In this document: one piece after another, positions 136 through 62,295 of the stretch
Layout of the letters: each line of letters opens with the position of its first letter
Position numbering within the stretch: position 1 is the stretch's first letter
Assembly (NCBI RefSeq): GCF_004010195.1
Contig: NC_057754.1
Location: 7,912,747-7,976,746, forward strand
DNA: 64,000 bases
From: Chiloscyllium plagiosum
Lineage: Eukaryota
Reading direction: 5' to 3'
Translations under genes and position numbers: made by a program
Notes under the pieces: generated by a model
Told to the model about the DNA's origin: nothing
Database searches by the model: none
Seen by the model: the letters and a program-made list of their open reading frames with translations, nothing else

Positions 136-904
136 GACATTGATGTATGCGGGGGACACGGAGAGTGACACTGATTGAGGCTGTCAGGGTGGTGAGCGAG
201 GAGGGCTAGGGGTTAGTCTGTCAGCTTGTGTCTCATGGTTAGGCTGTGGGAAGTGACGCTGTCAGTTATCTGGGCACGCTGTGGTTCAACAGTAAAGGCT
301 GGTCTCTGTGAAGGGTGACTGGACATGTACACCTTACTGCCAAATCACACAAAAAAACCCCCAAGGTACAGTCTTACGTGTTGTACCTTCTTCAGTTTCT
401 ACAGGTGGGGATCACACTTGCTCAGGATGTACACGTCAAAGACTTCACCTGTCAGTACGGTTTAAATTGAGCCCTCTGCTTACACCTACTCTCACCAAAT
501 GGCCAACTTTCACTCTGTTGGCTCTCTGTGTCATGATCTCACATTAACGGAGTAAGCTGTAATAACTGCCACTGCACTGTGTGTGTGTGTGTGTGTGGGG
601 TGGGGTTTGCACTCTCCTCCTTCTCTGTATTCAGTGCAGTGGCCAGCTTTTGCCACTGGGTGGCAGTTGCCATCAACAATTGTGGAGGTTGGCAACGCAG
701 AGCCGAGAGTGGCTGAAACAGGCAGCCGTGGGGTGGAGGAGAGTGGCAGGCTGCTTTTGGAGCTCATCCGTCAGAGGGAGCTGCTGGGCTGCTGGCTGCC
801 TGGCCCACTGTCACAGAAAGGGGTTGGATATGGCAGAGGGAACGAGACGGTGGGAGGATTGCAGGTGGCAAAGGGCAAGGTGGAAATGCATTACAGAGAA
901 CCAC

Positions 905-1690
905 AACATTCTGACAAAGCACAACGCAAGCTCGAGGAACAGCCCCTTATTTTCCACATCAGCATTTTGCAGCCTCGAGGTCTCAGTATTGAATTCCACA
1001 GCTTGTCAGTTCTCCGTCTTGGGCAGCACAGTTGTTGCCTCACAGCGCCAGGGATCCAGGCTCCATTCCAGCCTCGGGTGACTCTGCGTGTGGAGTTTAC
1101 ATTATTCTCCTCCATGTCTGAGTAGGGTTTCCTCCGGGTGCTCCCGTTTCCTCCCACAGTCCAAAGATGTGCAGGTTAGGGTGGATTGACCGTGCTAAAT
1201 TGTCCCATAGTGCCCAGGGATGTGCAGGTTAGGGGGGATTGGCCGTGCTAAATTACCCCATAGTGTCCAGGGATATGCAAGGCTAAGCTGGGTTAGTCAT
1301 GGTAAATGCAGAATTCCAGGGATGAGGTGGGATGCTCTTTGAAGGTTTGGTGCTGACTTGATGGGCCAAATAGCCATCTGCACTGTAGGGATTCTGTGAT
1401 TTTCCTTACGTTTTCTCCATCCGCGCAGCCTTATTCCCACCCTGTTTACTCTCATGGCTCATTCTGTCTTTTCTATACCCGTTTCATATTACTCTTACTG
1501 CTATTACCAACCCTGTAGTCTTTTACACTGGGCTTTCGCGCTGTCTGTGCCCTTCTCCCTCCTCTAGCTCTGTCAGAAGTATATTTAAAAAAAAAATTGC
1601 CAACCCCTTTCAGTTCTGAAGAAGGGTTGTACTGGCCTCTGTCCAGCGATGCTGCCAGACCCACTGAGTTTCTGCAGCACTTGTAACCCT
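905..1690 (+). mobile_element. Degenerate Penelope-like element 3' end (GIY-YIG C-terminus plus pLTR), interrupted by a SINE
   Basis: QRKLEEQPLIFHISILQPRGLSIEF (within ORF 583-1125) resembles the PLE endonuclease end. After the SINE come a pyrimidine-rich tract and ttctgaagaagggt...gatgctgccagacc..ctgagtttc terminal motifs. Confidence 0.6.
1021..1400 (+). mobile_element. tRNA-derived HE1/V-SINE-like SINE
   Basis: Head gcctcacagcgccaggga, core tggagttt..attctcc..gggtttcctccgggtgctcc, about 2.5 copies of the 53-bp unit, tail cactgtagggattct. Confidence 0.85.
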
Positions 1691-3344
1691 TGCTGTTACG
1701 CTCTATCCCACTCTCGGCCCTTACAGACCCCTTCGCTGATCTAAACATCTGTCAGTGTGACCTTAACAAAACTGTGGAGCTCAGTACCCTCGCCATTGCA
1801 ACTAAACCCCCTGATGAGAACTGAACCGAAAGCTTGGGCATGCCATCCTACTCCTGGGCTGTCGCGATAGAGCCACTTCCTGTCCGTGTATATCATCCGG
1901 TGTTTCTGTGTTTAAAATAGGAGCCAGGGCCTTTGGGGGTGATCGTCAGGAAGCACCTCCTCACGTCGAGGGGTGTGTAAAATTAAGTTTACCCCCCCCC
2001 CCACTCCCACCCAAAAAGCTGTAGACTTTGGGGGTTATAGGGCCAAGACTTGCCAGTGATACTCAGAGTTTTGGAACCAAGGCAGGTGGATGCAGTTCAG
2101 ATGGGAAAGCAGCCGCCATTTGATTGCAGAGCAGAACATGATCGAGGGGCTGAATAGCCTCATCCTGTCCCTGTTGAACTCTCCCAAGAACAGACAAAGA
2201 AAGACATGATAGGCCATTCGGCCCCTCAAGCCGCCTCCACTATTCCACTATAGTCTCAGAGTTGAGTGTGCGGTGTTGAAAAAGCACAGCAGGTCAGGCA
2301 GCATCCGAGGAGCAGGAGAATCGACATTTCGGGCATAGTCCGAACTTCACTGTCTGTTCTCTCCAACCCCTCCCCTCCCCTCCCCTCTCCAACTCTCGCC
2401 ACCATAACCCTTGTCTATGAATATGAGTGTATGAGAATTCTTCAGGTTCATGACCCTCAGAGAGAGAAGTAATTCCTCCTGGTGCCCATCTCAAATGGGC
2501 GACTCTTTCATCTGAAACCGTGTGGCCTCCTAGTCCTTGCTGCGGCCATGCGGGGAGGCATCCTGTCAATGTCCACACCATTGTGTCCCTTCTTTGCCGA
2601 ACCTGATGTGTTTCGATAAAATCTGCCGCTGTCCGTCTCGAATCCGACAAGTACAAGTCCGACCTGCTCAACCCTCGCTCAGAAAGCAGCCCTTCATCTC
2701 CAGAATCAGCCACGCAAAAGCCGATCTGAAGTACGTCTATTGCAGGGCAGTCCTTCCACAAATTCGGGTGACCAAAACTGTAGGTGTGGTCTCACCACGG
2801 CGTGGATTGGGGCCAGTTGAGGCCTGAAGCCATATCAAGCTGAAGAGGCACCATAATCTTATCAAAATCTTCTATTAGTCTTGCAAGACAATTAAGGCGG
2901 TAATATCAAAGCTTTGTATCTGCATAAGTACATAGGCGAAGGCGTGATGAAAAATGAATAATCTAACTGAAACATCTATCTTGCAGTAAGCCTATTTGCA
3001 TTGTGAAATGCACTCAAATGAAAATGCTTTATGATTTCTTAATTAACATATATGAAAACTTTTAATCTCCAGCAACACAAGAGCAATTAGACAGATCAGC
3101 ACTTGTTAAATGGAGGCAGCAAATCAACCAGCATAAAATTGAACATGTTTTCTTTTGTGTCTCTTGGACACTGATGATTGCCTCAAACTATGAGGTTTGT
3201 CACTTCCTGTGCGCACAGTGTAGACACCTTCCCTTGCAGCATATTTGCCTGAAGACCATTTTGGAGGTTTCTCAGCCAAGGAAGTCACGCTAACGTCCAA
3301 ACCAAACTGCAGTGTGGCCTCTCCAAGCGACTGACCTTTACCTC

Positions 3345-6245: not shown

Positions 6246-6356
6246 TGACTCCTTCATGTCTCTGTCTGGCTGCAGTAAATAGAGCACAGGTTGCTACATT
6301 GTGCGGATCCCATTGGGTTTTGTAGAGCCGGAGCAGGCAATGCCTTTCCTCAGTCA

Positions 6357-6709
6357 AAAAATCTCAAAACCAGGTTATAGTCCAACAGGGTTATTTGGAA
6401 GTACTAGTGCTCGGAGTGCTGTTCCTTCATCAGGTAGCTGTGGAGCGGGATCATAAGACACAGAATTTATAGCAAAAGATCTCAGTGTTATGCATCTGAA
6501 ACGATATATTGAACAAACCTAGATTGCTGTCTCTGACACTGAGATCTTCTGCTATAAATTCTGTGTCTTATGATCCTGCTCCACAGTTATGTGATGAAGG
6601 AGCAGCGCTCCGAAAGCTAGTGCTTCCACATAAACCTGTTGGACTATAACCTGGTGTTGTGTGAGTTGTAACTTTGTCCACCCCAGTCCAACACCAGCAC
6701 CTCCACATT
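6357..6709. mobile_element. Fold-back PLE-derived element, family B, with ~130-bp inverted arms each holding an HHR-like motif
   Basis: Arms ~6357-6490 and ~6534-6663 are reverse complements. tgatgaaggagcagcgctccgaaagctagtg at 6592-6622. Imperfect 17-bp TSD atgcctttcctcagtca (6340-6356) / atggcttccctcagtca (6710-6726). Confidence 0.85.
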
Positions 6710-6784
6710 ATGGCTTCCCTCAGTCAGCCATCGAACAGTGAATATTTTTTCACATAATCTTTATGTTATAGAGTAATAGTCAAA

Positions 6785-7704
6785 GAGTCATACAACATGG
6801 AAACACCTTTCAGTTCCACCAGTCCATGCCGACCAGAATCCCAAACCAATCTAGTCCCACCTGCCTGCACTTGGCCCATATCCCTCCAAACATTTCCTAT
6901 TCATGTACTTATCCAAATGTCTTTTAAACATTGTAACTGCACCCACATCCATCGCTTCCTCTGGAAGTTCATTCCACACACAAACCATTCTCTGTTTTAA
7001 AAAAAAAAGTTGTCCCTTATGTATTTTTAAAAATCTTTCTCCTCTCACCTTCAAAATATGCTCCCTAGTCTTAAAATCCCCCACTTTACGGAAAAGACAC
7101 CATATCTATACCCCTCATAATTTTATAAACATCTAGAAGTTCACCCCTCAACCCCTCCAGTGAAAAAGATCCCAGTCTCTAACAGAATCCGTACAGTGTG
7201 GAAACAGGCCCTTCAGTCCAACAAGTCCTCACCGACTCTCTGAAGAGTAACCTACGCAGACCCATTCCCTGACATTTACCCTTGACTAGGGCACCTAACC
7301 TACACGTTCCTGATTTAGCACAGTCAATACACCTAACCTCACATGTTTAGATTGTGGGAGGAAACGGGAGCAAACCCATGCAGATACTGTGAGAATGTGC
7401 AAACTCCACACAGACAGTCGCCCAATGCTGGAATCAAACCCAGGTCCCTTGCGCTGTGAGGCAGCAGTGCTGACCATTGAGCCACCGTGTTCTCCTTCTA
7501 ACTCAAACCCTCCATTCCTGGCAACATCCTGGTAAATCTCTTCTGAACCCCCTCCACCTTAATAATATCAGTCCAGTGTCAGGACGACTAGAACTGCACA
7601 CAGCACTCCAGAAGAGGCCTGACCAACGTCCTGCCCAATCTCAAATTAACATCCCAACTCATATACTCAAAAGGCCTGAGCAATGCAGGCAAGCATGGTA
7701 AATA
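6785..7704 (-). mobile_element. CR1/HER1-like LINE 3' fragment with nested SINE (~7185-7488, minus strand)
   Basis: Minus-strand translation contains VWNELPEEAMDVGAVTMFKRHLDKYM, a typical CR1 ORF2 C-terminus. Confidence 0.85.
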
Positions 7705-8927
7705 GGAGAAAGTGAGGACTGCAGAGCTGGAGATCAGAGCTTAAAAATGTGTTGCTGGAAAAGCGCAGCAGGTCAGGCAGCATCAAAGGAGAAGGAGAAT
7801 CGATGTTTCGGGCATAAGCCCTTCAGGAATGAGGAGGGTGTGCCAAGCAGGCTAAGTTAAAAGGTAGGGAGGAGGGACTTGGGGGAGGGGCGTTGGGAAT
7901 GCGATAGGTGGAAGGAGATTAAGGTGAGGGTGANNNNNNNNNNNNNNNNNNNNNNNNNNNNNNNNNNNNNNNNNNNNNNNNNNNNNNNNNNNNNNNNNNN
8001 NNNNNNNNNNNNNNNNNNNNNNNNNNNNNNNNNNNNNNNNNNNNNNNNNNNNNNNNNNNNNNNNNNNNNNNNNNNNNNNNNNNNNNNNNNNNNNNNNNNN
8101 NNNNNNNNNNNNNNNNNNNNNNNNNNNNNNNNNNNNNNNNNNNNNNNNNNNNNNNNNNNNNNNNNNNNNNNNNNNNNNNNNNNNNNNNNNNNNNNNNNNN
8201 NNNNNNNCAGGGGAAGGTGCTGGGAGTGGAGGTTGGGTTGGTGGGGGGTGTGGACCTGACGAGGGAGTCACGGAGGGAGTGGTCTTTTCGGAACGCTGAT
8301 AGGGGAGGGGAGGGAAATATATCCCTGGTGGTGGGGTCCGTTTGGAGGTGGCGGAAATGACAAAGGATGATACGCTGTATATGGAGGTTGGTAGGGTGGT
8401 AGGTGAGGACCAGTGGGGTTCTGTCCTGGTGGCGATTTGAGGGGCGGGGCTAAAGGGCGGAGGAGCGGGAAGTGGAGGAGATGCGGTGGAGAGCATCGTC
8501 GACCACGTCTGGGGGGAAATTGCGGTCGTTAAAGAAGGAGGCCATCTGGGTTGTATGGTATTGGAACTGGTCCTCCAGGGAGCAGATGCGGCGGAGGTGA
8601 AGGAATTGGGAATATGGGATGGCGTTTTACCTAGATTACACTTCTTCCCACCCTGCCCCCTGTAAAAACTCAGTACCGCCTTCTTGACCTGCAATCTTCT
8701 TCCTGACCTCTCCGCCCCCACCCCCTCTCCGGCCTATCACCCTCACCTTAACCACCTTCCACCTATCGCATTCCCAACGCCCCTCCCCCAAGTCCCCCCT
8801 CCCTACCTTTTATCTTAGCCTGCTTGGCACACCCTCCTCATTCCTGAAGAAGGGCTTATCCCCGAAACGTCGATTCTCCTCCTTTGATGCTGCCTGACCT
8901 GCTGCGCTTTTCCAGCAACACATTTTT
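7705..8927 (-). mobile_element. Penelope-like retroelement, 5'-truncated, with inverted pLTRs and 14-bp TSD (contains gap 7934-8207)
   Basis: Minus strand of 8208-8630 reads NAIPYSQFLHLRRICSLEDQFQYHTTQMASFFNDRNFPPDVVDDALHRISS...RTPLVLTYHPTNLHIQRII... (PLE RT thumb/linker, one stop). 7741-7933 is inverted at the right end (to 8930). TSD aagcatggtaaata at 7691-7704 and 8928-8941. Confidence 0.92.
8841..8874 (+). ncRNA. Minimal type-I hammerhead ribozyme motif (family A)
   Basis: CTGAAGA (8844-8850), A, GGG cttatc CCC, GAAAC, GTC (8869-8871). Confidence 0.7.
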
Positions 8928-9629
8928 AAGCATGGTAAATAACCTTCTTAACCTAGATAATCATCCTTGCCCTCTAATTTTGCCAGGAGGACAGTCCAAG
9001 CGAGGTTAAAGTCCATGTACAGAAAGGAAAATTACGACCAAAGGGTCTGTTTCAGTGCTGTATGACTCTGTAACGTTAAAAGCCAGTACAGTTGGCGGAC
9101 TCTGACATGCTGGCCTGGCTTGACATGCGTACTTCAGAATGGAAGTCCAGTGTCACCACTCCATTCATCTTTTCTTTCCATACCAATTCCCCTTCTCTCC
9201 TGCATTAACTGTATTCAGAGAAGATGGTTCGGTCAGAGAGAAAATAATTCTACTCGGATCATAAGTACCTTGAAGTACGACGACTCGCCTTCTCTCTTGC
9301 GACCGCTTTTATTATTCATAATATGTGATTTGATAATTAAGAGATACTTGCCCTCTCCTTTCATTAATCTTTAATTAAATGTGTTAACTGAGGCTCAGAG
9401 GGTAATGTGCTGTCTTTCAGCTGGAAGTTAGAAAGTCATGACTTCCAAGTCGCACTCCAGAGGCGTGAGCACTCCAGTCCCGAGGGAGTACTTTCCACTT
9501 CAGCTGGCGTCTTTCACAAGAACATAACAGCTGGCGGCAGGAGTAGGTCCCTGTTCAGCCCCTTGAGCCTGCTCCGCCCTTTGATGCGATCATGGCTGAT
9601 CACATGTCAGCCTCAACTCCCACTTCAGT

Positions 9630-10600: not shown

Positions 10601-10980
10601 TCTATTATTCTGACCATTTTGTGACTGTGACCCCCTAGTTTGAGTCTCCCCTTAAGGTATTCAAACCTGTCAAACCTCTCAGAATGTGTTCTGTTTCAGT
10701 AAGTGCATCGCTCATTCCTCAAAGCTCTAACGGCCGTCGGCCCAAGCCGCTCAATGCTTCCTTATAAAACAAACCCCTTCCTCGATGATTGAGCGTTTTC
10801 GGAAGTTCCTGCAATGCAAAGTATATCTCTCCTCAGCAACATTTTACCATTAACAGGGATGGATGAAGAAGCACTTTTCTCTGAGTGTTGAGAGTCTTCC
10901 TCAAAAGGAAGCAGATGCAGAATCTAAAAAATATTTCTAAGACTCAGGCAGATAGATTCTTCATTACCAAGGGATAATCA

Positions 10981-11171
10981 TGATTTGGAGATGCCGGTGT
11001 TGGACTGGGGTGGACAAAGTTAAAAAATCACACAACACCAGGTTATAGTCCAACAGATTTAGCATTCGGAGCGACGCCTGAGAACCACCTGATGAAGGAG
11101 CGTGGCTCTGAAAGCTCGTGTGCTTCCGATTAAACCTGTTGGACTATAACCTGGTGTTGTGTGATTTTTAA
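10981..11171. mobile_element. Fold-back PLE-derived element, family B, with 12-bp TSD
   Basis: Inverted aaaatcacacaacaccaggttatagtccaacag / ctgttggactataacctggtgttgtgtgatttt. TSD aagggataatca at 10969-10980 and 11172-11183. Confidence 0.88.
11086..11120 (+). ncRNA. Minimal type-I hammerhead ribozyme motif (family B)
   Basis: cac-CTGATGA-a-GGAGC gtg GCTCT-GAAA-GCT-C-gtg: stem I cac/gtg, 5-bp stem II, AGCU palindromic stem III. Confidence 0.75.
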
Positions 11172-12054
11172 AAGGGATAATCAAGGGTGTGCAGGCTCAG
11201 AGAGCTGAGGTTGAAATCAGATTAGTCATGATCTTTATTGAATGTCTTAGCAGATTCGAGGGCTGAATGGCCTGTATCTAGCTTGGTATGGTCCAGTGTG
11301 ATAATACAAAGCTGAGTTGGACAATAAACTGTGAGGACAGCGCAAAAAGAGGAGGTGGTGGCAAAATTGGATTCGTAAAAGGGCAGACTATTTGTGTAAA
11401 CAGGGGAGGTGATGGCGTATTGGTATTATCACCAGAGTAGTAATCAGGCGGACTGTTTACATAAAGAGAGGAGGTAGTGCGATGTTGGTACTATCCCTGG
11501 ATTAGTAAGCAGGCGGATAGCTCCTGTGCACATCCCACTGTGTTTGCTGTTTATGAAAATCCTCAGAGGTGATTTGCCGCAGCCAGGCCCCCTCCTGTGA
11601 TTGGAGACGTCGCTGTAACTTCACCAGCAACCTGCCCTTGCCCGCCTTGGTCCCCTTCAGATCTTAGCTGTCATTAAAAACTTGGAACCCCGCTATTCCT
11701 GCAATGTTTTTGTGTAATCTACGGTGAAGGGTTACAAAATATTTGCTCAATGACTCGAAGGGACCCCCTGTTTACTTTTGCTCGTCTCTTCCTCCTAATG
11801 AACCTGCAACAGTTTGTGCGTTCTGATTTTGTTTATTCTAGTTTACTGTCACATTCTGCTTCCTTCCTTTTTATCCATCTGTTGTATTCAAATCGCTGCC
11901 ACCAATTGCTCCCTTTCAGAAATATTTCATTGGATGCCCTAAAGTTGCGGAAGTTGCCATGATAGTGCAAGTCTGTGTTTTGGTTGTAGAGTCATAGAGT
12001 TAAACAACATGGAAACGGATGCTCTATGTACTGTGGACTGGATTAACTAATCCA

Positions 12055-13360: not shown

Positions 13361-13445
13361 CGACTGAGAATAAAAATCAGCTGGAACACAAGCACAAACT
13401 GCTGGTAAAACTCAGCAGCTCTGTCAGAAGGAGTCAGCAGGGTGG

Positions 13446-17174: not shown

Positions 17175-18305
17175 GTTATTTGGTTTATTGTTGTCACATG
17201 TGCCGAGGTACAATGAAAAGTTTTGTTTTGTGTGCCGTGCAAGCAGACCATACCATACAAAGTGCATCAGGGTAATAGAACAGAGCGAGGAATACAATGT
17301 TACAGCTTCAGAGGTGATTAGATTAGATTCTCTACAGTGTGGAAACAGGCCCTTCAGCCCAACAAGTCCACACCGCCCCTCCGAAGAGAAACCCACCCAG
17401 ACCCATTCCCCTACCCTATATTTACCCCTGACTAACACACCTAACACTACGGTCAATTTAGCACGGCCAATTCACCTGACCTGCACATCTTTGGATTGTG
17501 GGAGGAAATCGGACCACCCGAGGAAATTCATGCAGACACGGGGAGAACGTGCAAACTCCACACAGACAGGCGGGCATCCAACCTGGGTCCCTGGTGCTAT
17601 GAGGCAGCAGTGCTAACCACTGAGCCACTGAGCCACTGTGCCACCCCCATAAGGTGCACAAAGAATAGGACCAACATTAAATATAAAATTGATGAAGGGC
17701 TTTTACCCGAAACGTCGATTTCGCTGCTCCTTGGATGCTACCTGAACTGCTGTGCCCTTCCAGCACCACTAATCCAGAATCTGGTTTCCAGCATCTGCGG
17801 TCATTGTTTTTACCTCGTAAAATTTGAGGGGTCCATTCAGCAGTCTAACAACAGTGGGGAAGAAGCTGTTCTTGAATCTGTCAGTCGGTGCGAATAAGCT
17901 TATGTATCTTCTGCCAAACGGAAGAGGTTGGAAGAGATTACAACTGGGGTTGGAGGGGTCTTTGATGATGTCGGCTGTCTTCCTGAGGCAGTGGGAAGTG
18001 TAGATGGAGTCAATGGATGGAATCCCTGAAGAATGGTCACTGGACCCGAAATGTTAACTCTAATTTGTCTTCACAGATGCTGCCAGACCTGCTGAGCTTT
18101 TCCAGCAACTTTTGTTTATGTTTCTGATTTACAGCATCCGCAGTTCTTTCGGTTTTTAACAGGCGGAAGGTTGGCTTGCATGATGGATTGGGCTGTGTTC
18201 GTAACTCTCTGTAGTTTCTCACAGTCCTGGGCAGATCAGTTGCCACACTGAGCTGTGATGCATCCAGAGAGAAAACACTTTCTGTGGTGCGTCTGTAAAA
18301 ATTGG
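17175..18305 (-). mobile_element. Rex1/Babar-like LINE 3' end carrying three nested insertions
   Basis: Minus strand reads, with frameshifts, NFYRRT...SGCITAQCGN...LQRV..TAQSI...SIDSIYTSHCLRKTADIIKDPS...LPFGRRY...FKNSFFPTVVRLLN, typical of the Rex1/Babar ORF end. Nested SINE 17317-17650 and PLE pieces 17690-17815 and 18025-18160. Confidence 0.75.
17690..17815 (+). mobile_element. Short PLE element, family A
   Basis: tgatgaagggcttttacccgaaacgtcg...ccagcatctgcggtcattgtttttacc. Confidence 0.85.
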
Positions 18306-19861: not shown

Positions 19862-20290
19862 CCGTGTGTACCCGAGTAATAATCAATCTCGTGTAAAAGC
19901 CGACCTCCTATCTTTGGCCAAATAACCTGGAATTTCCCACACATCTCGTGGGAAAGGTGACCCTAGTTCCTCGCAGATAACAGATCAACGTTTCTGAGTC
20001 AGTGTGCCAGCCGTCACGTCCCGTTCCAGTCTGCCAGTTGTCCCACCCCACTCCTGGTCTTCCAGTCTGCTGGCTGTTGTGCTCCGCTCCGGAATTTCCG
20101 AATTACCATAAGTTGTTTATTTTCCATTGTTAGTTTAGGGATCAGTTGCGCTTCTGCTAATGATATGGTATGAATTTTGCTGGGCATCAATTTCAGCCCC
20201 TCAAAAGTAGTATCCATGTAGTATTCGGCCCCATACATTTAACCTTAAAATGTAGTCAAGAAAATTTGACTATTACTGGAGTATATACGG
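19862..20290. mobile_element. Non-autonomous Tc/mariner-superfamily DNA transposon (MITE) with TA TSD
   Basis: Left ta|ccgtgtgtacccgagtaataatcaa; right end reverse-complements to ta|ccgtatatactccagtaatagtcaa (22/27 identical including the TA). No ORF. Confidence 0.7.
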
Positions 20291-20328
20291 TAAATAAAAA
20301 CTGCCCCACCAGATTCTCCTGTTGTAAT

Positions 20329-22075
20329 ACACTGGCTGCAATGAGGAGTGCCGGAGCAGGCACACTGGCCGCAGTGAGATAGTGCCGGAGCAGGCACACT
20401 GGCCGCAATGAGGTGGTGCCAGAGCAGGCACACTGGCCGCAATGAGGTGGTGCCGGAGCAGGCACACTGACCGCAGTGAGGAGTGCCGGAGCAGGCACAC
20501 TGGCCGCAATGAGGTGGTGCCGGAGCAGGCACACTGGCCGCAGTGAGATAGTGCCAGAACAGGCACACTGGCCGCAATGAGGTGGTGCCAGAGCAGGCAC
20601 ACTGGCCGCAGTGAGATAGTGCCAGAGCAGGCATACTGGCCGCAATGAGGTGGTGCCAGAGCAGGCACACTGGCCGCAATGAGGTGGTGCCAGAGCAGGC
20701 ACACTGGCCGCAGTGAGATAGTGCCGGAGCAGGCACACTGGCCGCAATGAGGTGGTGCCAGAGCAGGCACACTGGCCGCAATGAGGTGGTGCCAGAGCAG
20801 GCACACTGGCCGCAGTGAGGAGTGCCGGAGCAGGCATACTGGCCGCTGTGAGATAGTGTCGGAGCAGGCACACTGACCGCAGTGATGAGTGCCGGAGCAG
20901 GCACACTGGCCGCAGTGAGGAGTGCCGGAGCAGGCACACTGGCCGCAGTGAGGAGTGCCGGAGCAGGCACACTGGCCGCAACGAGGAGTGCTGGAGCAGG
21001 CACACTGGCCGCAGTGAGGTAGTGCTGGAGCAGGCACACTGACCGCAGTAAGGAGTGCCGGAGCAGGCACACTGGCCGCAACGAGGAGTGCTGGAGCAGG
21101 CACACTGGCCGCAGTGAGGTAGTGCTGGAGCAGGCACACTGACCGCAGTAAGGTAGTGCTGGAGCAGGCACACTGGCCGCAGTGAGGAGTGCCGGAGCAG
21201 GCACACTGGCCGCAATGAGGAGTGCTGGAGCAGGCACACTGGCCGCAGTGAGGAGTGCCGGAGCAGTCACACTGACCGCAGTGAGGAGTGCCGGAGCAGT
21301 CACACTGACCGCAGTGAGGAGTGCCGGAGCAGGCACACTGGCCGCTGTGAGATAGTGCCGGAGCAGGCACACTGGCCGCTGTGAGATAGTGCCGGAGCAG
21401 GCACACTGGCCGCAACGAGGAGTGCCGGAGCAGGCACACTGGCCGCAGTGAGATAGTGCCGGAGCAGTCACACTGACCGCTGTGAGATAGTGCCGGAGCA
21501 GGCACATTGGCCGCTGTGAGATAGTGCCGGAGCAGGCACACTGGCCGCTGTGAGATAGTGCCGGAGCAGGCACACTGGCCGCAACGAGGAGTGCTGGAGC
21601 AGGCACACTGGCCACAGTGAGATAGTCCCTGAGCAGGCACACTGGCCGCAGTGAGATAGTGCCAGAGCAGGCACACTGGCCGCGGTGAGATAGTGCCAGA
21701 GCACGCACACTGGCCGCAGTGAGATAGTCCCTGAGCAGGCACACTGGCCGCAGTGAGATAGTGCCAGAGCAGGCACACTGGCCGCTGTGAGATAGTGCCG
21801 GAGCAGGCACACTGGCCGCAGTGAGATAGTGCCGGAGCAGGCACACTGGCCGCAGTGAGATAGTGCCGGAGCAGGCACACTGGCCGCTGTGAGATAGTGC
21901 CGGAGCAGGCACACTGGCCGCTGTGAGATAGTGCCAGAGCAGGCACACTGGCCGCTGTGAGGTAGTGCCAGAGCAGGCACACTGGCCGCTGTGAGGTAGT
22001 GCCGGAGCAGGCACACTGGCCGCAGTGAGATAGTGCCGGAGCAGGCACACTGGCCGCAGTGAGATAGTGCTGGAG
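20329..22075. repeat. GC-rich minisatellite, 33/34-bp unit, about 50 copies
   Basis: Unit agtgccggagcaggcacactggccgcagtgagat (34 bp) with variants such as ...gtgagg (33 bp). It accounts for the long repetitive minus-strand ORFs. Confidence 0.97.
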
Positions 22076-22159
22076 ACTAGTTTAATTCTGAAAAATTGGT
22101 GGCATGGACAAGTTGGGCCAAAGGGTCTATTTTCATGCTTTAGATCTCTGTGACTGTAT

Positions 22160-22760
22160 AAAACAGAGGTAACGCAGTACTCCAGGTGTGGCCTCACCAG
22201 CACCCTATACAACTGCAATGTCACCTCCCTGCTTTTTAAACTCAATCCCTTTAGCAATAAAGGGCAATATTTCATTTGCCTTCTTAATTACCTATTGCAC
22301 CTGCAGACCAACCTTCTGTGATTCACGCACAAGGACACCCAGGTCCCTCTGCATTGCAGCATGCTGCAGGTTTTTTTACTGTTCAAATAACAGTCCCATT
22401 TACTGTGATTTCTCCCGAAATGGATAACTTCATATTTATCAACATTGCGTTCCATCTGCCTGACCTTTGCCCAGTCACTTAAACTATCTATATCCCTCTA
22501 CAAACTTTGTTCTACCACTCATCTTAATGTCATCCGACAACTTTGACACACACTACACACCCCAACTCCAAGTCATCAATGTGAATTGTAAACAATTGCG
22601 GTCCCAACACTGATCCCTGAGGCACACCAGTAGTCACTGATCGCCAACTAGAAAAGCACTCATTTATTCCAACTCTTTGCTTCCTGTTAGTTACCTAATC
22701 CTCTGTCCATGCTGATACATTGCTGTAATGCCAGGCACCTTTATCTTATGCAGCAGGCTT
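22160..22760 (-). mobile_element. CR1-like LINE RT fragment
   Basis: Minus-strand translation KSREVTLQLYRVLVRPHLEYC, with a degenerate [10 protein letters not shown] motif at ~22600-22630. Confidence 0.8.
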
Positions 22761-24260: not shown

Positions 24261-25239
24261 AGCAAATGCATAGGACTGAAGGATCTCCAACAGCAGGAAG
24301 ATAAGTGCTGGAAAATGCACAGCCAGTCAGGCAGCATCCGAGGAGCAGGAGAGTCGACGCTTTGAGCATGAGCTCTTCATCAGTCCTCGGTTTCTCCTCG
24401 GGGGAAGGTAACACCCACAATGTAGCTGTGACTGCCATGGGCCTTAATAAGCTGAGGGTTGGCATACATTCCCTGAAGGAGGCCTCTGGATCTCTGAAAC
24501 AAAAACGCTCGGACCATTGCAGTTGACAGGGAATAAGGCAAATTACATTTAAGGTGATTCCAGACAAAGACGTGAGGGAGAAAGGAGTAGAAGGTTATGT
24601 TGATGAGGAGAGCTGGGCTAGCAGGAGGCTTCAGTGGCATTGGCCCGATGGAGCGAATGGCCGCTTGCTGTTCAGTAACTCCCCTGCAATGCAGAGAAAC
24701 CATCTGGAGCATTGCCACACTGCCGATTCACTGTGTACACATGGCGACGTTTAGATATTTGCTTTGATGACTCCGACACGCTCTCATTCTCTCGCTATCA
24801 CATCGCTGCTCAAATTCAAATCAATTGTTCTGCAAATTCTGCCTTTCCGAACCTCTTGACTATCCAGACATCCAGCTAAAACTGCTTGTGATTGGTTTGT
24901 TGTTTCTGATCCAGTTTTTCCAAAAGGGCTGAGACAACGTCTAATGAAGCTCATTCATCTTGCACTGTCACTTTTGAGGAGCTAAAGAACAGTAGGTGCA
25001 TCAATTAAAATGGATATCTTACCTTGAGCTGTGTAAATCTGCTTGCAGATTTTCTTATATCCCTCGACTATGTGATCATTGATTTCTGTCAGTTACTGTA
25101 TTCTAGGAAAACAAGGTTAGGAAGAGCCTGTTCTGCCAGTCCTTTAGATCCTGTCTAATTGTACTGTTTATTTTCTTCGGTTCACTTCGGGAGAGGTGAC
25201 TAATGCAGAATATACCAGTCTAGAATCTGGGTTGAGGCA

Positions 25240-26330: not shown

Positions 26331-26384
26331 GGGGGAGAGAGAGGGCACGGTGTTCGAGAATGCAACAAGCTAAGCTCAAAGAAA

Positions 26385-27163
26385 GGAGAATGAGTTCACA
26401 GTCTGAAGCTGGACGTTAAGTCCAGAAGGTTGCAAAGTGTCCAGTCTGAAGATGAGATGTTGCCCCTCTGGTTTGGGCTGTGATTCACAGGAGCATTACA
26501 GTGTACCGAGGACAGCCACGTGGGCATGTGAGCAGGATGCTGTGTTAAAATGACCGGCTATGGGAAGGTTGAGGTCGACCCTCCGCACAGACGGAGGTGT
26601 TCTGCAAAGTGATCACCCAGTCTGTGCTTGGCTTCTCCAGTGTAGAGGAGGCCGCACTGTGTGCAACGAATGCAGTCGACCAGATTGGAGGAGTCGCGGG
26701 TCATGTGCCGCTTCACCGGGAAAGGTGCTTAGGCCTTTGGGTGGTGAGCAGGGAAGAGGTGGAGGGACAGGAGTTGCACCTGCTGTGATTACATCGGACG
26801 GTGGTGTGGGAAGGGAGGGCAGTGTTGGTTGTTATCAAGAAATGGACTAGGATATCCCAGAGGGAAGGGTCCCTGTGAAATGCAGACAGGGGAATGAGGG
26901 CAAGATGTGTTTAGTGGTGGCGTTCTGCTATAGTTGTCTGAAATGGCAGAGGATGATCCTTTGAATATAGAGACTGGTGCATAAAAAGATAGGCCAAGGG
27001 GAATCTGATCACGCTGTTGTGAGTATGCTGCCCCTTCCACACTTTACATCAGCTCTAAGAAAGAGTCATCTGGATTCAAAACGTTAGCTTGCCGTCTCTC
27101 CACGGATGCTACCTGACCTGTTGTGATTTCCAGCATTTTCTGTTTTCAGTGCAGATTCCAGCA
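26385..27163 (-). mobile_element. Degenerate PLE with GIY-YIG endonuclease remnant and inverted terminal piece
   Basis: Minus strand DSSNLVDCIRCTQCGLLYTGEAKHRLGDHFAEHLR ... QHLIFRLDTLQPSGLNV. An opposite-orientation pLTR-like piece at 27050-27163 is split by a SINE. Confidence 0.8.
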
Positions 27164-27485: not shown

Positions 27486-28259
27486 CTGCAGTAATTTGCT
27501 CCTACGTTCATATTTTTATGTCAGCCAGGGCTCCCTGATTGGACCAGATTAGCAGCCCCAGTCAGGGAACTCATATTCTGAGTTACAATCACTACACTTT
27601 CAGCACAGCCATGCGATTTTCAGCTAAATATGGTCCCCGAATTCAGCTTTTCTCATTCCCTGGCTTACCATTATCCATTCCTTTTGTCTGCCTGTCTTTC
27701 TCTCTCTCTCTGGGCTCTGTCTCCACCTATATACCTCCTCCTTTTCCCCCTCAACTCCTGTCTCAAGCCTATATACTACGTTTCCGTAGCTACAGTCAGT
27801 TCAACAAAAGGCTAACTGGACCTGAAATGTTAACTCTGCTTTCTCGCCAGACATGTTGCGTTCCTTTAGTTATGCAGTAGTTCAACTGCATTTGTATGGA
27901 ACTGGAGTTGCATGTACAATCTGACTAAGGGAAACTGTTTTGTTTTCCTACAGGATATTTGTGAGCCACTTGGGATTTTGATATTTTTCGAAAGCTTCAT
28001 GGTCGCTTTCACTGTAACTCGCATTTTATTACCAGGTTTTATTTCCAATTGAATTCAAATAACGAGAGCACAGTGGGATTTGAACTCACGTTCTCAATGC
28101 AGAGACATAACTGTTGCTATTCCAGGCCTAGCCCTCAATTGAATAAATGCAGAAAATCCTGATGACGTTCCTAATCTGCATGGATCTTTGTGAACTGTGA
28201 TAGAGAAACACAATTCCAACAGGCTTTTATGCACTTAATTTAAAAAAAAAATGAAATCT

Positions 28260-28995
28260 TTGCATATGCTAGAAATGTGAAATTGAAAACAAACAATGCT
28301 GGAGAAACTCAGCAGGTCTGGTAGCATCTGTGCAGAACAAATGTTAATGAGAGAGTTAATGTTTTGAGTCTGTGCTTCCTTTTCAGAACTAAAGGAGGTT
28401 GGAAAATGGTTTTTTCAAAACATTTTTCATTCCTGATGAAGGGCTTTTGCCCGAAACGTTGATTCTCTTGCTCCTCGGATGCTGCCTGACCTGTTGTGCT
28501 TTTCCAGCACCACTCTAACCTAGACCCTGATCTCCAGCATCTGCAGTCCTCACTTTTGCCCCGTTTTGTTTTTATGAATGAATGGAACAGAAACCAAAGG
28601 TGCTCAGAGGAAAAGACAAGGGAGTGCTAATGTTAGCAAAGGAGCGATAGTGATGTAAAATAGGTGTGAATGGTAGGTGTGAAAAGGAGAAAATGGGACC
28701 ACTTTGCAGAGAGCAAAGTCAACAGGACACTGTGTGTGTGTGTGTGTGTGTGTGCGCGCAGTAAGAATCAGGGCAGAGAAGGTGCTCTGATGTGGTGTAA
28801 CTCATTATTGTGTAAAATGCCTAAGCGGAAACCGAGGTGTTGCTCTTCCAACATGCATTAAGCTTCTTTGGAACAGTGTAGCCAATGGGCATGAGACTGG
28901 AAAGGGGGGATCATCCTTATGGACAGAGCAGAGGTGTTCTGCAAAATCGTCACCCAGTCTGTGTTTGGTATCACCGAGTGTGGAGGAGACTACTT
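28260..28995 (-). mobile_element. Degenerate PLE 3' end (GIY-YIG remnant plus pLTR) with nested family A insertion
   Basis: Minus strand GDTKHRLGDDFAEHLCSVHK and LEEQHLGFRLGIL. Terminal motif tgctggagaaactcagcaggtctgg. Confidence 0.7.
28429..28560 (+). mobile_element. Short PLE element, family A, with intact HHR core
   Basis: CTGATGA (28433-28439), A, GGGC tttt GCCC, GAAAC, GTT (28458-28460). Confidence 0.88.
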
Positions 28996-32068: not shown

Positions 32069-32572
32069 CACTCTGTAACAGTTTTAAATGTGTCTGTTAG
32101 CTCTTTTTGATATGACCAGGAACATAGACCTTCCTCCTTTGATGGTTTGTGGCATTAACTCCTTGCTCTCTTCTGTCATAGAGTCCTATAGCATGGAGAC
32201 AGGCCCTTCGGCCCAAACCGGTCTATGCTGACCAAAATGTCCATCCACACTCAGCCCATTTCCCTGCACTTAGCCCATATCCTTCTCACCCTTTCCTATC
32301 CATGTATTTGTCCCGATGCCTTTTAAATGTTGTTAATGGACCCGCCTCAACCACTTACACTGGCGGCTCATTCCATAAGCGTACCACCCTCTGTGTAAAA
32401 TAGTTGCCCCTCAGGTTCCCTTTTATTCTTTCCCGTCACCTTGTACTAATGGCCTCCAGTCGTCAATTGCCCAACTTTGGGAAAAAGTCTGAATGTATTC
32501 ACCCTATCATCCTCTCATGATCTTATACACTTCTATAAAATCCCACCTCAGTCTCTTAATGCTGTCAAGAAA

Positions 32573-32692
32573 TGATTTGGAGGTGCCAGTGTTGGGGTGT
32601 ACAAAGTTAAAAATCACACAACACTAGGTTATAGTCCAACGGGTTTATTTGGAAGCACTAGCTTTCGGAGCACTGCTCCTTCGTCAGGTGGG
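32573..32692 (-). mobile_element. Short PLE element, family B, with intact HHR and 10-bp TSD
   Basis: Reverse complement of 32656-32690 is cac-CTGACGA-a-GGAGC agt GCTCC-GAAA-GCT-A-gtg. TSD tgtcaagaaa at 32563-32572 and 32693-32702. Confidence 0.88.
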
Positions 32693-33158
32693 TGTCAAGA
32701 AAAGCTCTCAAGAAAAGTGTCCTGGCTTGTCCAACCTCTCCCTACAACTTGAATCCTGGCAACATCCTTGTAAATTTCTTCTGCACGCTTTCTAGTTTAA
32801 TAACGTCCTTCCAGTAACAAGGTGACCAGAACTGAACACAATACTCCAAGTGCGGCCTCACTAACATCCTGTACAACAGCAATGAAACTCCCCAACTTCT
32901 ATCCTCAATGCTCTGACTGATGAAGGCCAATGTGCCAAAGGTTTCTTCACTGCCCTGTCTACCTGGGACTCCACTTTCACCTGAACTCTGAGGTCTCTCT
33001 GTTCCACTACAGTCCTTAAGGCTCTACCATTCACCATGAAACTCCTCCCTTGATTTGACTTTCCAAAATGTAAGACCTTACACCTGTCTATATTAAACTC
33101 CATTTGCCATTTCTCGGCCCATTTCCCCAGCTGATCAAGGTCCTGCTGCCATTTCTGA

Positions 33159-40509: not shown

Positions 40510-42840
40510 ATGTGAGGTTTCGCAGTTTGGTAAGACAAACCAGGGCAGGACTTAGACAGTTAATGATAGGGCCCACGGGAGTGTTGTTGAACAGAGGGAC
40601 CAAGGGGTGCAGGTTCATAGTTCCTTGAAAGTGGAATCGCAGGAGGACAGGGTGGTGAGGAAAGCGCTTGGCACGCTTGCCAACATTGATCAGAGCATTG
40701 AGTATAAGAGTTGGGGTATCATTTGCAGCTGTACAGGACATCGGTGGAGCCTCTTTGGAATACTGCGTTCACTTCTGGCCTTCCTGCTATTGGAAGGATA
40801 CTGTTAAACTTGAAAAGATTAACAAGGATTTTGCTGAGACTGGAGGGATTGAGTTGTAAGGAACGGCTGGATAGCCAGGGACTTCTTTCCCTGGAGCGTC
40901 AGAGGCTAAGGGGTGACCTTATGGAGGTTATAAAATCATGAGGGGCCCTGAGATTCACTTGGAGGTTGAGGGGTTGGGGGTGAGGGGTCCTGGACATGAA
41001 CAGTACTGGATGGAGGGTGGTTTCATGATTTATGGCAAGTGGGTGTACTGAATGAGCAGTCTTGCCCTTAGAGATTTCAGTCCAAGGCGCATTGTGCACA
41101 TCCCTGGGATTTTGTTTGCCTTGGTTCTCCTGGATGCACCGTTGGCACGTAGAGGTGTTGGAGGGAGAGGGGGAGTATACATGAGTCTGACAGCATTGGG
41201 TGGAAGGGAACCTGAAGTCTCACTGAGCTGCATTGAAAGGGGAGATGGTGCTGCATGGCAGATGAAGTTTAATGTGGGGTGGCATGGTGGCTCAGTGGAT
41301 GATACCACTGCCTCACAACGCCAGGGATCCAAGTTCAATTCCAGCCTCGGGTGACTGTCTGTGTGGCGTGTGCACATTCACCCCGTGTTTCCTTTGGGTG
41401 CTCCGGTTTCCTCGGACAGTCCAAAGATGTGGAGGTTAGCTGGATTGGCCATGCTAAATGCACGGTTACAGAGATAGAGTAGGGGGGGTGGGTCTCGGTG
41501 GGATGCTTTTCAGAGGGTTGGTGTGCACTCGGTGGGCTGAATGGCCTGCTTCCACACTGTAGGGATTCTGTGTGAGGTGATCCATGTTGGCAGCAAAAGT
41601 GAAAAGGCAGATTATTATCTGAATGGCAATAGATTGGGAAAGGAGAAGGTGCAGCGAGACCTTAGTGTTCTTGTACATCAGCTGCTGAAAGTGAGCATTA
41701 AAGGTGCAGCAGGCAGTGAACAAGGAAAATGGTACATTGGCCTTCACTGTGAGAGGATTGGAGTACAGGAGCAGGGATGTCTTGCACTGATTGACTTGGT
41801 GAGACCACATGTGGAGTATTGTGTACAGTTTTGGTCTCCGTATCTGAGGAAGTATGTTCTGGCGGTGGAGGGAGTGCAGGGAAGGTTAACCAGACTGATC
41901 CCCGGGATGGCAGGACTGAAGCATGACGAGAGTGGATTATATTCACTGGAGTTTAAAGAATGTGTTGGGAGGGGGGAGGAGGTTTCCTACAAATCTATTA
42001 ACTTCTAACAGGATTAGACAGGGTAAATACAGAAAGGATATTCCCAAAGACCTGGGGATTCCAGAACCAGGGACTCACAGTCCAAGGACTATTACTTGAA
42101 TGGTAAGAAATTGCAGCACACAGCTGTGCAGAGGGATCTGGGTGTCCTTGTGCATGAGTCACAGAAAGTTGGTTTGCAGGTGCAATGGGTAATTAGCAAG
42201 GCAAATGGAATTTTGTCCTTCATTGCGAAAAGGATTGAGTTTTAAAAACAGGGAGGTTATGTTGCAGCTGTATAGGGTGCTGGTGAGGCCACACCTGGAG
42301 TACTGTGTGTAGTTTTGGTCTCTTTACTTGAGAAAGGATGTCCTGGCACTGGAGGGGGTGCAGAGGAGGTTCATTAGGTTGGTTCTGGAGTTGGGGGGGG
42401 GGGGTGTCGGCTTCTGGGGAGAGACTGAGTCAACTGGGATTATATTCATTGGACTTCAGAAGGATGAGGGGGGGATCTTTCAGAAATATGTACAACTATG
42501 AAGGGAATAGATAAGATGGATGTTGAGAGGATGTTTCCACTGGAGGGTGGAGCTAGGACAAGAGGGCACAGCCTCAAGATTAGAGGGACCAGATTTCAAA
42601 CTGGATTGAGAAGGGACTCCTTCACCCAGAGGGTTGTAAATCTATGGAATTCCCTGCCCAGTGAAGTAGTTGAGGCTACTTCAGTAAATGTTTTTTGAGC
42701 TAAGATAATTTTTTGAACAGTAAAGGATTGAAGGGTTATAGTGAGAGGGTGGGTAAATGGAGCTGAGGCCACAATACAATCAACCATGGTCTTATTGAAT
42801 GGCAATGCAGGCTCGAAGGGTCAGGCGGCGTACTCCTCCT
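40510..42840 (+). mobile_element. Series of CR1-like LINE fragments with nested SINE (41277-41570)
   Basis: DLVRPHVEYCVQFWSPYLRK and TRGHSLKIRG...FTQRVVNLWNSLP. Confidence 0.82.
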
Positions 42841-44207: not shown

Positions 44208-44752
44208 TTATAGAGTCATAAGGATGTATAGCACGGAAACAGACCCTTTGGTCCAATCCATCCATGCCGACCAGATATCCCAACCCAATCTAGTCCCACC
44301 TGCCAGCGCCTTGACAATTCCCTCCAAACCCTTCCTATTCATATGTCCATCCAGATGCATCTTAAATGTTGCAATTGTACCAGCCTCCACCACTTCCTCT
44401 GGCAGCTCATTCCATACACATACTACCCTCTGTGTGAAAAAGTTGCCCCTTAGGTCCCTTTTATATCTTTCCCCTCTCACCCTAAACCTATACCCTCTAG
44501 TTCTGGACTCCCCCACCCCAGGGAATAGATTTTGTCTATTTACCCTATCCATGCCCCTCATAATTTTGTAAACCTCTATAAGGTCACCCCTCAGCCTCCG
44601 ACGCTCCAGGGAAAACAGCCCCAGCCTGTTCAGCCTCTCCCTGTAGCTCAAACCCTCCAACCCTGGCAACATCCTTGTAAATCATTTCTGAACCTTTCAA
44701 GTTTCACACCACCCTTCCGATAGGAAGGAGACCAGAATTGCACGCAATATTC
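44208..44752 (-). mobile_element. Young CR1/HER1-like LINE 3' end
   Basis: Open 154-aa frame MLPGLEGLSYRERLNRLGLFSLERRRLRGDLIEVYKIMRG...WNELPEEVVEAG. Confidence 0.93.
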
Positions 44753-47926: not shown

Positions 47927-49760
47927 ATAGAACAGTACAGCACAGTACAGGCCCTTTGGCCCAATTTACCACTGTCCATGTACTTGTCCAGCAGTTGCTT
48001 AAATGTCCCTAATGTCTCTGACTCTACTACCACCCATGGGCAGTGCATTCCACACACCCACCACTCTCTACGTAAAGAACCTACGTCTGACATCTCCCCT
48101 AATCACCTTCAAATTATGACCTCTCGTGACAGCCGTTTCTGCCCTGGGGAAAGGCCTCTGGCGATCTACTCCATGTATGACTCCCATTACCTTGTATACT
48201 TCTATCAAGTCACCTCTCTTCCTCCTTCTCTCCAGTGTGAAAAGCCTGAGCTCACTCAACCTCTCCTCATAAGAAATGCCCTCCTATCTTGGTAAATCTC
48301 CTCTGCACCCTCTCTAAAGCATTTACATCCTTTCTATACTGAAGCGACAAGAACTGGACACAATATTCCACGTGTGGTCTAACCAGGGTTTTATAGAGCT
48401 GCAGCAAAACCTCATGGCTCTTAAACTCAATCCCCCTGTAAATGAAAGCCAAAACACCATATGCCTTCTGAACAACCCTATCTACTAGGGTGGCAACTTT
48501 GAGGGATCTATGTATGTGGACCTCAAGATCCCGCTGTTCTGCTTCATTGCCAAGAATCCTGTCTTTAACTTTGTATTCAGCATTTAAATTCGACCTTCCA
48601 AAATGAATCACTTCGCATTTATCCAGGTTGACCTCCACCTATGACTTCTCAGCCCAGCTCTGCATCCTGTCAATGTCTTGTTGTAGTCTGCAACAGCCCT
48701 GAACCCTATCTACAACACCACTGGATGTGTCATCGGCAAACTTACTAACCCACCCTTCCACTTCTTCAAAGTCATTTATAAATACTACAAAGAGCAGAGG
48801 CCCAAAAACAGATCCATGTGGGATACCACTGGTCACCGACCTCCAGGTGGAATACTTTCCATCCACTCCCACTTGTTGTCTTCTTTTGGCCAGCCAATTT
48901 TGTATCCAGATAGCCACATTTCCCTGTATCCCATACCTTCTAACTTTCTGAATGAGCCTAGCGTGGGGAACCTTATCAAGTGCCTTATTGAAATCCATAT
49001 AAACCACATCCAGTGCTTGACTTTCATCAACTTGTCTTGTCACGTCCTCAAAGAACTCAATAAGGCTTGTGAGGCATAACCTGCCTCTCTCAAAGCCACG
49101 CTGACTATCTTTAATCAAACTTTGTTTTTTTCCAAATCCTGTCTCTCAGAATGCTTGCCAGTACCTTGCTTACCACAGATGTCAGACTGACTGCTCTGTA
49201 ATTCCCAGCAATTTCCCTATTCCCTTTCTTGAACAGAGAAACAATATTCGCCTCCTTCCAATCGTCCCGTACGATTCCACGGAGAGTAGGGATGCAAAGA
49301 TCATCACCAGAGGCGCAGCAATCTCATTCCTCGCTTCCCGTATTAACCTTGGCTATATCTGGTCTGGCCCTGGGGACTTATCTATCTTGATGCTTCACAG
49401 AATTTTCAGCACATCCAGTTTCTTAATATCAATCTGTTCAAGCCTTTTCACCTGGTCCACGGTGTTCTCACTCTCAACAACGTCCCTCTCTCGAGTGAAT
49501 ACCAAAGCAAAAAACTCATTTAGGGCCTTCCATACCTCTTCAGACTCCAGGCCCAAGTTTCCTCCACTATCCCTGATTGGCCCTACCCTCTCTTATTCCT
49601 CATGCTTTTGGGTTTTCCCATCTCCTTCCCTCCAAGGCTTTTTTGTGCGCCCTCCTCACTCTACTCAGTCCATTTTTGAGTTCTTTCCTAACGACATTGT
49701 AATGCTCTAAAGCTGTGCCAGCTCCTTGCTTCCTCAGCCTTTAGTAAGCTTCCTGTTGAT
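47927..49760 (-). mobile_element. CR1-like LINE ORF2 with RT domain (disrupted)
   Basis: DVVYMDFNKALDKVPH...GIPHGSVFGPLLFVVFINDF...SKFADDT and LYKTLVRPHVEYCVQF, with stops and frameshifts. Confidence 0.93.
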
Positions 49761-61110: not shown

Positions 61111-62046
61111 ACTAGTCAGGAATATGGAGTCGAAGCCAGCGTCAGATCCACCATTGAATGGAGGAGCAGGATAGAGGGGCCAAATAGCCTGTTCCTAATC
61201 CATTTTGTCAGCATGCAGGAAGCTGGCGCAGTCAGACTGAAGAGCCCATTGCCGCACAGAACACAGGATCATTTACTGAGACAGCGACAACAAAAAAACA
61301 CGTTTTGTTTTGAAGTTTAGCAGGTGCAGACCTCTTTAATTCTTTCCCGGCACCTAGAAGAGCAAAAATAGCTTCATTCCTGGACAAACTCTCCGTGTGT
61401 GTGTGTTGCTGTTGTCAGGCAGTTGACTTGTTCAAGTGTCGTGTTGGTTGGCGACTTTATTTGAAATGGATAGATGACTATTTGAAGGTGGTAGGCTGTT
61501 TTTCAAATTATCGCCATCCTCTGCAGAGCTTGGCAAACGACCCTACCTAATCTTACCCACAATCGTTTTGCTTGAATATTGCCAAATGCTACAGAAGCAT
61601 TCCGTCTTGCCCTCATCAGGACGAATGCAAGAATGCCAGACTTGAAATGGAACAACTGTTTAGACCATGGGGGGAAATAGAATGGTGATCACGCATCCCT
61701 CGATTTTGAGAGTTTGGGGAGCCTGGGATTCTGTGTCACCTTCTCCACAGCAACTCCTTGGCCAATCAGAGCTGCCTCGCTGACCAATCCCGAGGGACAG
61801 ACTGGGGGATGATGGTCGACGGTGGGGGTTGGCCGAGGAACATTGAGGGCAGGGAGCGGCTTTTGGTTTCCGAGGTGGGGAGGAGGTGAGCCATCGTGGG
61901 TCGCGTCCTCCACTCGACGGTGCGCATTTATGTAGCGGCTCTCACCTCCTCAGGAGAGTACATCACAGCCAGCAAGGCACTGAGCCACTCGCGTGAGGAA
62001 AGACAGTCGTCGCAATGAGCTGTTGTGCAATGACTGCGTTTGATGA

Positions 62047-62242: not shown

Positions 62243-62295
62243 TGCATTTGATGAGGAAGGCTTAAGTATCAGCAGGGCCAAGCACATACAAGGCG

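Follow-up and report, generated by a model that had tools for sequence, protein, structure and literature searches.

The three family-B hammerhead motifs in the window (the whole 64,000-nucleotide stretch of shark DNA analysed here) are minimal hammerheads of a kind already described from Penelope-like elements (PLEs), and they lie in dead end-pieces of such elements. The original prediction missed that the motifs belong to PLE insertions. It is very likely that family B represents the pseudo-LTR, or 3' end module, of an endonuclease-bearing (EN+) PLE, that its motif is selected in the master element, the dispersed copies being mostly inert, and that the poor pairing between families A and B is a by-product of divergence. 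Most likely, family B is a shark addition to a motif class described in 2014, and the named copies are fossils. The motif alone adds little, as one shark family in a known class. One lead is worth keeping, namely the used poly(A) signal behind the ribozyme.

Inspection of the sequence placed the three 35-nt motifs at the sites and on the strands originally given for them:

11086 to 11120, plus strand: family-B minimal hammerhead of type I, with C3 at 11089 and cleavage predicted after C 11117
32656 to 32690, minus strand: family-B minimal hammerhead of type I, with C3 at 32687 and cleavage predicted after A 32659
62116 to 62150, minus strand: family-B minimal hammerhead of type I, the cleanest of the copies, with C3 at 62147 and cleavage predicted after A 62119

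All three carry stem I cac/gtg, CUGANGA, stem II GGAGC/GCUCY with a 3-nt loop and GAAA-GCU-H, as had been described, and the full order in each is cac-CUGANGA-A-GGAGC-3-nt loop-GCUCY-GAAA-GCU-H-gtg. The extra unpaired A between A9 and G10.1, present in 3/3 copies, had been omitted from that description. The core CUGANGA ... GAAA ... UH, the published criterion for minimal hammerheads, is likewise present in 3/3 copies, and the published consensus CUGANGAH-G..C-GAAAN-palindrome-NUH fits family B. A structural descriptor was run on both strands of the 64-kb window. It asked for CUGANGA, allowed an extra base behind it, and required a stem II with 4 bp or more, GAAA-NN-U-H in which H is not G, and a stem I with 3 bp or more; it returned three matches, exactly the named copies.

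The motif had been called intact in three copies. This is true of the core elements in all three, but 11086-11120 has a G10.1-U11.1 wobble, H17=C and a 2-nt insertion after H17; G10.1-C11.1 opens helix II in the other two. The 2-nt insertion is not unique to this copy and was found at the same place in 343/2706 RNA reads. Family-wide frequencies were taken from Logan contigs of two DNA-like runs matched to 6490-6745 at 82% likeness (72,648 and 57,351 records, which are not copy numbers), and they show that family B is very abundant in two organisms. As no contig spans the whole of 6490-6745, the DNA runs describe the family and not this locus. At position 11.1, C is the majority base and T makes up 22-26% of DNA depth; the C11.1>T frequencies (22.4% and 25.9% in the two runs) equal those of C>T in the stem II loop (22.8% and 25.5%). 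The loop does not vary freely, as had been claimed, since much of its variation is CpG decay or subfamily variation.

Stem III of family B is AGCU without a loop, in agreement with the first description, and the ACGU of family A was recovered in 5/6 family-A matches of a relaxed scan. Eight family-B rows (window arms and two marine contigs) were aligned. G-C at the palindromic positions 15.2-16.2, without loop III, is found in 7/8 rows; the exception is one broken arm, and both marine contigs keep AGCU. Stem II has no two-sided change in these eight rows, a weak test given that the rows are related and that the structure was taken from them. In helix I, two-sided changes occur in 2/6 pairs, both owed to the marine contigs. 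A hammerhead-like motif at 1808-1838 (plus strand), with a ccc/ggg helix I, the AGCU palindrome and a broken stem II, is present as a single copy in the window.

The two contigs came from a scan of metagenome contigs, which returned two loci, both marine (L001:968-1002 and L002:1331-1365). Their motif is alike to 62116-62150 at 32/35 nt, apart from the flank and loop. Both retain H17, AGCU, stem II and the core of family B; their loop is GGA, their helix I has 5 bp, and both sit in inverted PLE structures. The flanks of the shark and marine copies are only weakly alike (37/2000 shuffles scored as high for the 3' flank and 829/2000 for the 5' flank). Pattern scans of viral contigs gave no locus. 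The sole match among prokaryote genomes (L003) lacks C3-U4 and has G at H17, and it was taken as chance.

A chance resemblance to a hammerhead inside a repeat can practically be dismissed as the origin of family B. It would fit with the Rfam search of the window at gathering score, which gave no match, hammerhead families included, and with the lack of stem II covariation in the family. However, the descriptor found nothing in 300 dinucleotide shuffles of the window, and the distant contigs share the core, stem II and palindrome, with helix I extended there by two-sided changes (2/6 pairs). The PLE context also speaks against chance, which the published consensus and the match to L001 and L002 already contradict.

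The contigs also carry the protein evidence. In L002, a GIY-YIG-type frame on the same strand as the motif, with a CxxxxCxxC linker, has its end about 750 nt upstream of it. P0001, a shark RT/GIY-YIG protein that carries both RT and GIY-YIG matches, is 39% identical to this frame in its endonuclease part (E 2e-18). A Pfam search with this frame gave no match of its own, and a protein search found two relatives only. In L001, an inverted RT fragment lies beside the 3' region of the motif, matching Pfam RVT_1 at E 4.4e-5 (below the curated cut-off) and P0005 at 41%. A position 3' of an RT/GIY-YIG frame is seen for the same motif in L002 and L001, which are of another source, and for family A of the window, which includes the following features:

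7691 to 8941, unstranded: family-A PLE insertion in inverted arrangement, flanked by a 14-bp target-site duplication (7691-7704, 8928-8941) and with a hammerhead arm at either end; spans an N gap
8255 to 8626, minus strand: RT-thumb remnant, 71-77% identical to shark RT/GIY-YIG proteins (tblastn)

Of 42 candidates compared with an 80-residue frame at 8210-8449, 10 are relatives, and the five named ones are from Rhincodon and Chiloscyllium, so that the window comes from a shark-like genome. For family B, no shark ORF joined to the motif was found, so that its link to PLE proteins rests on architecture and on two short contigs of another source. A tblastn search with three of ten shark PLE proteins found no remnant inside or beside the family-B insertions. 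Further broken remnants of the PLE endonuclease region were seen by tblastn at 26382-26892 (minus), 28795-28978 (minus) and 880-1011 (plus).

The architecture is that of truncated insertions, of which the window holds four with seven family-B arms, four of the arms being broken:

10969 to 11183, unstranded: whole insertion with an exact 12-bp target-site duplication (TSD; 10969-10980, 11172-11183); a tailed arm with the core deleted at about 10981-11079 (minus) and a tail-less arm at 11079-11171 (plus), head to head
32563 to 32702, minus strand: whole insertion with an exact 10-bp TSD (32563-32572, 32693-32702); a single tailed arm at 32573-32692 (minus) that starts 5 nt upstream of C3
62035 to 62254, unstranded: whole insertion with a 12-bp TSD, 1 mismatch (62035-62046, 62243-62254); a tailed arm (minus) with a 16-nt deletion behind the hexamer and a tail-less arm at 62160-62242 (plus) with G12 changed to A and C3-U4 altered
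6340 to 6726, unstranded: fourth insertion with a 17-bp TSD, 2 mismatches (6340-6356, 6710-6726); a tail-less arm at 6357-6535 (minus) and a tailed arm at 6536-6709 (plus), both hammerheads broken

All four are bounded by a TSD of 10-17 bp. Three of the four are head-to-head inverted pairs, in which a 5'-truncated copy has an adjacent inverted copy, and in 3/3 pairs a tail of about 40 bp is present on one arm only. No coding sequence, and no RT/GIY-YIG frame in particular, was found inside the four TSD-bounded insertions; the longest upstream sequence, carried by 6340-6726, gave no open frame on translation. The four insertions are truncated, non-coding copies.

These properties agree with the published systems. 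Cervera and de la Pena (2014, PMC4209133) defined the minimal hammerheads of metazoan PLE pLTRs by an extra base and a palindromic 15.2-16.2, and reported that most copies are solo and truncated, that pairs lie on opposite strands, and that cleavage is weak and confined to dimers. Family B shares with them the type I core, the extra base at 9/10.1, G10.1-C11.1, the missing loop III and a short helix I. By our own count, 5/56 rows of their Fig. S3 have a GC palindrome; the turtle row combines it with AAUAAA right after helix I, like family B. That figure contains no chondrichthyan row, whereas family B is from a shark. According to Craig et al. (2021, PMC8557442), adjacent inverted copies with a tail on one end are typical of PLEs. 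The 5' truncation, inverted copy, one-end tail and AT-rich targets of family B are those of EN+ PLE insertions, whose template is uncleaved RNA (PMC8557442, PMC11167929). For an anole element, Frangieh et al. (2024, PMC11167929) described two RT start sites and AT-rich targets. The DNA 3' ends of family B match these two start sites: loose ends lie in both runs at 6664 (tail-less) and at 6705-6712 (tailed), with AT-rich flanks, and the two classes correspond to the tailed and tail-less arms. The anole hammerhead overlaps the start of an ORF; behind family B, the copies seen show no open frame. AGCU is also retained in a diverged subfamily that has H17=U (loose ends at 6630). A pile of 5' loose ends at 6592 was set aside as proof of clustered truncation, the reference copy having changes of its own at 6587-6591.

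If family B were a non-autonomous retrozyme in its own right, spreading through circular RNA in the form of tandem repeats, it would likewise lack coding sequence, as do 4/4 insertions, and retrozymes derived from PLE pLTRs have been reported in a chondrichthyan (bioRxiv 10.64898/2026.07.22.740005). This preprint ties tandem retrozymes to PLE pLTRs, and its non-LTR retrozymes share with family B the non-coding sequence, the type I hammerhead and the derivation from PLE pLTRs. They consist, however, of tandem units each with a hammerhead, and no direct tandem family-B copy exists in the window, where arms are solo or on opposite strands only; tandem direct units with at least two full hammerheads, the criterion for non-LTR retrozymes, are thus absent from it. 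In addition, the insertions start upstream of the hammerhead rather than at the cut site, and joints and loose ends show reads and contigs running on upstream of 6490, on the strand expected. A retrozyme is therefore a very improbable reading of family B, and the end module of a PLE is preferred.

In DNA, the family decays neutrally, the catalytic G12 being lost as fast as a neighbouring CpG: G12>A makes up 15.5% and 18.7% of depth in the two runs, against 15.2% and 18.1% at the CpG G 6607. The palindrome positions 6616-6618 are not among the 40 differences listed, out of 111. The three named copies themselves are probably inert, as judged from predicted folds and from their surroundings. None has a partner on the same strand, and two of them (at 11 kb and 62 kb) are locked in long hairpins. 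When whole insertions were folded, stem II came out with a pair probability of about 0.78 at 32 kb and of 0.00 at 11 kb and 62 kb, the opposite arm being its partner there.

Each of the three named copies keeps a poly(A) hexamer:

11129 to 11134, plus strand: ATTAAA hexamer behind the hammerhead, GU-rich stretch next; usage observed family-wide only
32644 to 32649, minus strand: AATAAA hexamer, 10 nt after the predicted cut site
62104 to 62109, minus strand: poly(A) hexamer behind the 62116-62150 hammerhead
6629 to 6649, plus strand: family hexamer position (6629-6634) with poly(A) addition behind 6646 and 6649; the hexamer is mutated in the 6340-6726 copy

Four family-A copies were checked and have no hexamer within 140 nt. 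Use of the signal was observed in a single-cell poly(A) run of one sample (X21), in which 3753/12,955,460 records match family B, one of them at 99% or better. On the ribozyme strand, 629 reads end in poly(A) behind 6646 and 832 behind 6649, which amounts to 1461/3753. The majority bases of 6629-6634 are AATAAA, or ATTAAA in 25-35%, and lie 10 nt past the cut site and 12-15 nt before the poly(A) ends; a GU-rich stretch follows the poly(A) sites, and the genomic DNA there is not A-rich. Neither 6646 nor 6649 is among the DNA loose ends listed (six per run). A sister run of the same sample (X22) gave 0/8,328,510 records and provides no test of poly(A) use. Since the poly(A) site precedes both DNA 3' end classes, an RNA ending there would lack the tail and would not serve as the template for these insertions. 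No statement on a poly(A) signal behind PLE hammerheads was found in the available text of the literature searched, including PMC2377424, PMC6155905 and the retrozyme preprint, a search to which subscription papers and Repbase did not belong. The signal is likewise a difference from the minimal hammerheads of PMC4209133, whose available text does not mention it.

The same reads bear on cleavage. Among the RNA ends listed for X21, no pile is seen at the cut site, and depth continues across it (2134, 2261 and 2281 in successive bins). A poly(A)-primed library would lose the cut products, so that a missing pile does not exclude cleavage. In the anole PLE, too, no RNA-seq ends were reported at the cut site, and its hammerhead cleaves only with protein and is dispensable for insertion in vitro (PMC11167929). 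Changes that break the core are enriched in poly(A)-side reads: U4>C is found in 133/457 (29.1%), against 5.0% and 1.8% in DNA, and G12>A in 451/2082 (21.7%), which is commoner than in DNA. This could mean that intact copies do cleave. However, the harmless H17 A>U is commoner as well (16.6% against 4.2% and 5.9% in DNA), so that a few expressed loci may explain the enrichment.

On these data, it might be proposed that the dispersed copies are active in trans, transcripts ending in family B dimerising through AGCU, cutting 10 nt before their own poly(A) signal, shedding the tail and regulating RNAs. The polyadenylation of the X21 reads on the ribozyme strand behind 6646 and 6649, the canonical form of both hexamer variants and the enrichment of some core-breaking changes are consistent with this proposal. 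It is nevertheless highly improbable: the expected ends are missing from those listed, depth runs on across the cut site, and about 78% of poly(A)-side reads keep G12 yet are uncut. Published dimers of minimal hammerheads cleave poorly (PMC4209133), and 1/9 Xenopus retrozyme dimers was cleaved (bioRxiv 10.64898/2026.07.22.740005). The decay in DNA is neutral, and the RNA evidence comes from one run of one sample, the sister run giving no reads. There is equally little probability in a pseudo-LTR acting as a ribozyme-plus-poly(A) cassette, whose dispersed copies would supply poly(A) sites to shark transcripts and whose hammerhead would be a concentration- or protein-dependent switch that removes the tail on AGCU pairing, with family A unable to interfere.

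The preferred reading, an end module active in its master element, may be pictured as follows. In the RNA sense, family B would be laid out as a minimal hammerhead, a hexamer 10 nt past the cut, a poly(A) site, a GU-rich stretch and a tail of about 40 nt. With uncleaved RNA as template, the RT of the element would have run from the tail to a point slightly upstream of the hammerhead. It would often have changed strand on the way, and short stubs flanked by TSDs and head-to-head hairpins would be what remained. The insertion architecture is observed; the copying steps we infer from Craig et al. (2021) and Frangieh et al. (2024). Selection would have acted on the motif in the master element, in which two copies might be brought together by a tandem array or by the protein of the element. 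On the model in the literature, a double hammerhead could form there through AGCU/AGCU pairing and swapped helix I strands, and the dispersed copies, the three named ones included, would mostly be inert passengers that decay neutrally.

Dimerisation of loop-less hammerheads, which had been put forward for both families, is a published model (Cervera and de la Pena 2014, PMC4209133) and suits the type I hammerheads without loop III found here; the AGCU palindrome and dimer architecture were already in print. The review PMC6765202 repeats the model, citing Lunse, Weinberg and Breaker (RNA Biol.), and the PLE variants of these authors, as the review reports them, have a shrunken palindromic stem III and cleave as dimers; stem III of family B is shrunken and palindromic likewise. 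From the strand order of the double hammerhead it follows that helix III and helix I both form between copies. Computed on this fold, six shark B/B pairs gave -12.7 to -17.7 kcal/mol, ten A/A pairs -4.1 to -13.9 kcal/mol and twelve shark A/B pairs -2.0 to +5.8 kcal/mol. The double-hammerhead fold was never the best co-fold, B/B lying 8-15 kcal/mol above the best in a model that ignores tertiary contacts.

The original prediction further held that the two palindromes might keep the families from cross-pairing. The computed A/B double hammerhead is indeed mismatched: helix III keeps 2/4 pairs, with a duplex energy of +0.4 kcal/mol against -2.5 and -1.7 kcal/mol for the homo-pairs. Helix I mismatches too, however, with one contiguous pair per core in A/B and three in B/B, so that the families are incompatible whatever the palindrome. 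The folding model thus makes A/B cross-pairing unfavourable, and the palindrome is not the sole reason for this. In Fig. S3 of PMC4209133, at least two loop-less families occur in eight genomes (Nematostella, Clonorchis, S. mansoni, Ixodes, Lottia, S. purpuratus, Latimeria and Xenopus; genomes whose second row has an extended helix III were left out of our count), and in 7/8 of these a palindrome is shared between families. Together with the helix I mismatch, this makes the insulation look incidental. Selection of families A and B for different palindromes so that their ribozymes avoid cross-pairing is accordingly unlikely. The weak A/B pairing in all twelve shark pairs and the retention of AGCU in 7/8 aligned rows and in the diverged H17=U subfamily agree with it. 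Only four Watson-Crick palindromes are possible, however, so that two unrelated families will often differ. Moreover, the single-copy motif at 1811 has AGCU, and the palindrome of the A-related subfamily at 18026 appears to stem from ACGU. The insulation idea agrees with the sequence, yet it lacks support.

Craig et al. (2021, PMC8557442) and Frangieh et al. (2024, PMC11167929) treat the role of PLE hammerheads as a question still to be settled. The succession of cut site, hexamer, used poly(A) site and tail, where copying would start, offers a concrete substrate for the question of poly(A)-tail removal by cleavage, and families A and B form a natural pair for tests of dimer specificity.

Several other features were observed in the window. 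Helix I of family A (for example at 13035, 28433 and 44046) has two contiguous pairs followed by a U-U mismatch and is weaker than that of family B. A family-A variant at about 24299-24383 (minus) has a two-sided change in stem II (GAGC/GCTC against GGGC/GCCC), compensatory between subfamilies. An A-related subfamily at 18026-18170 (plus) differs in stem II and flank, with related pieces at 27815-27859, 28287-28342 and 13385-13427. A G+C-rich tandem repeat array at 20245-22287 gives rise to long open frames on the minus strand. The frames 41541-42008, 44208-44681 and 48639-49145 resemble what we take to be CR1-type LINE reverse-transcriptase remnants.
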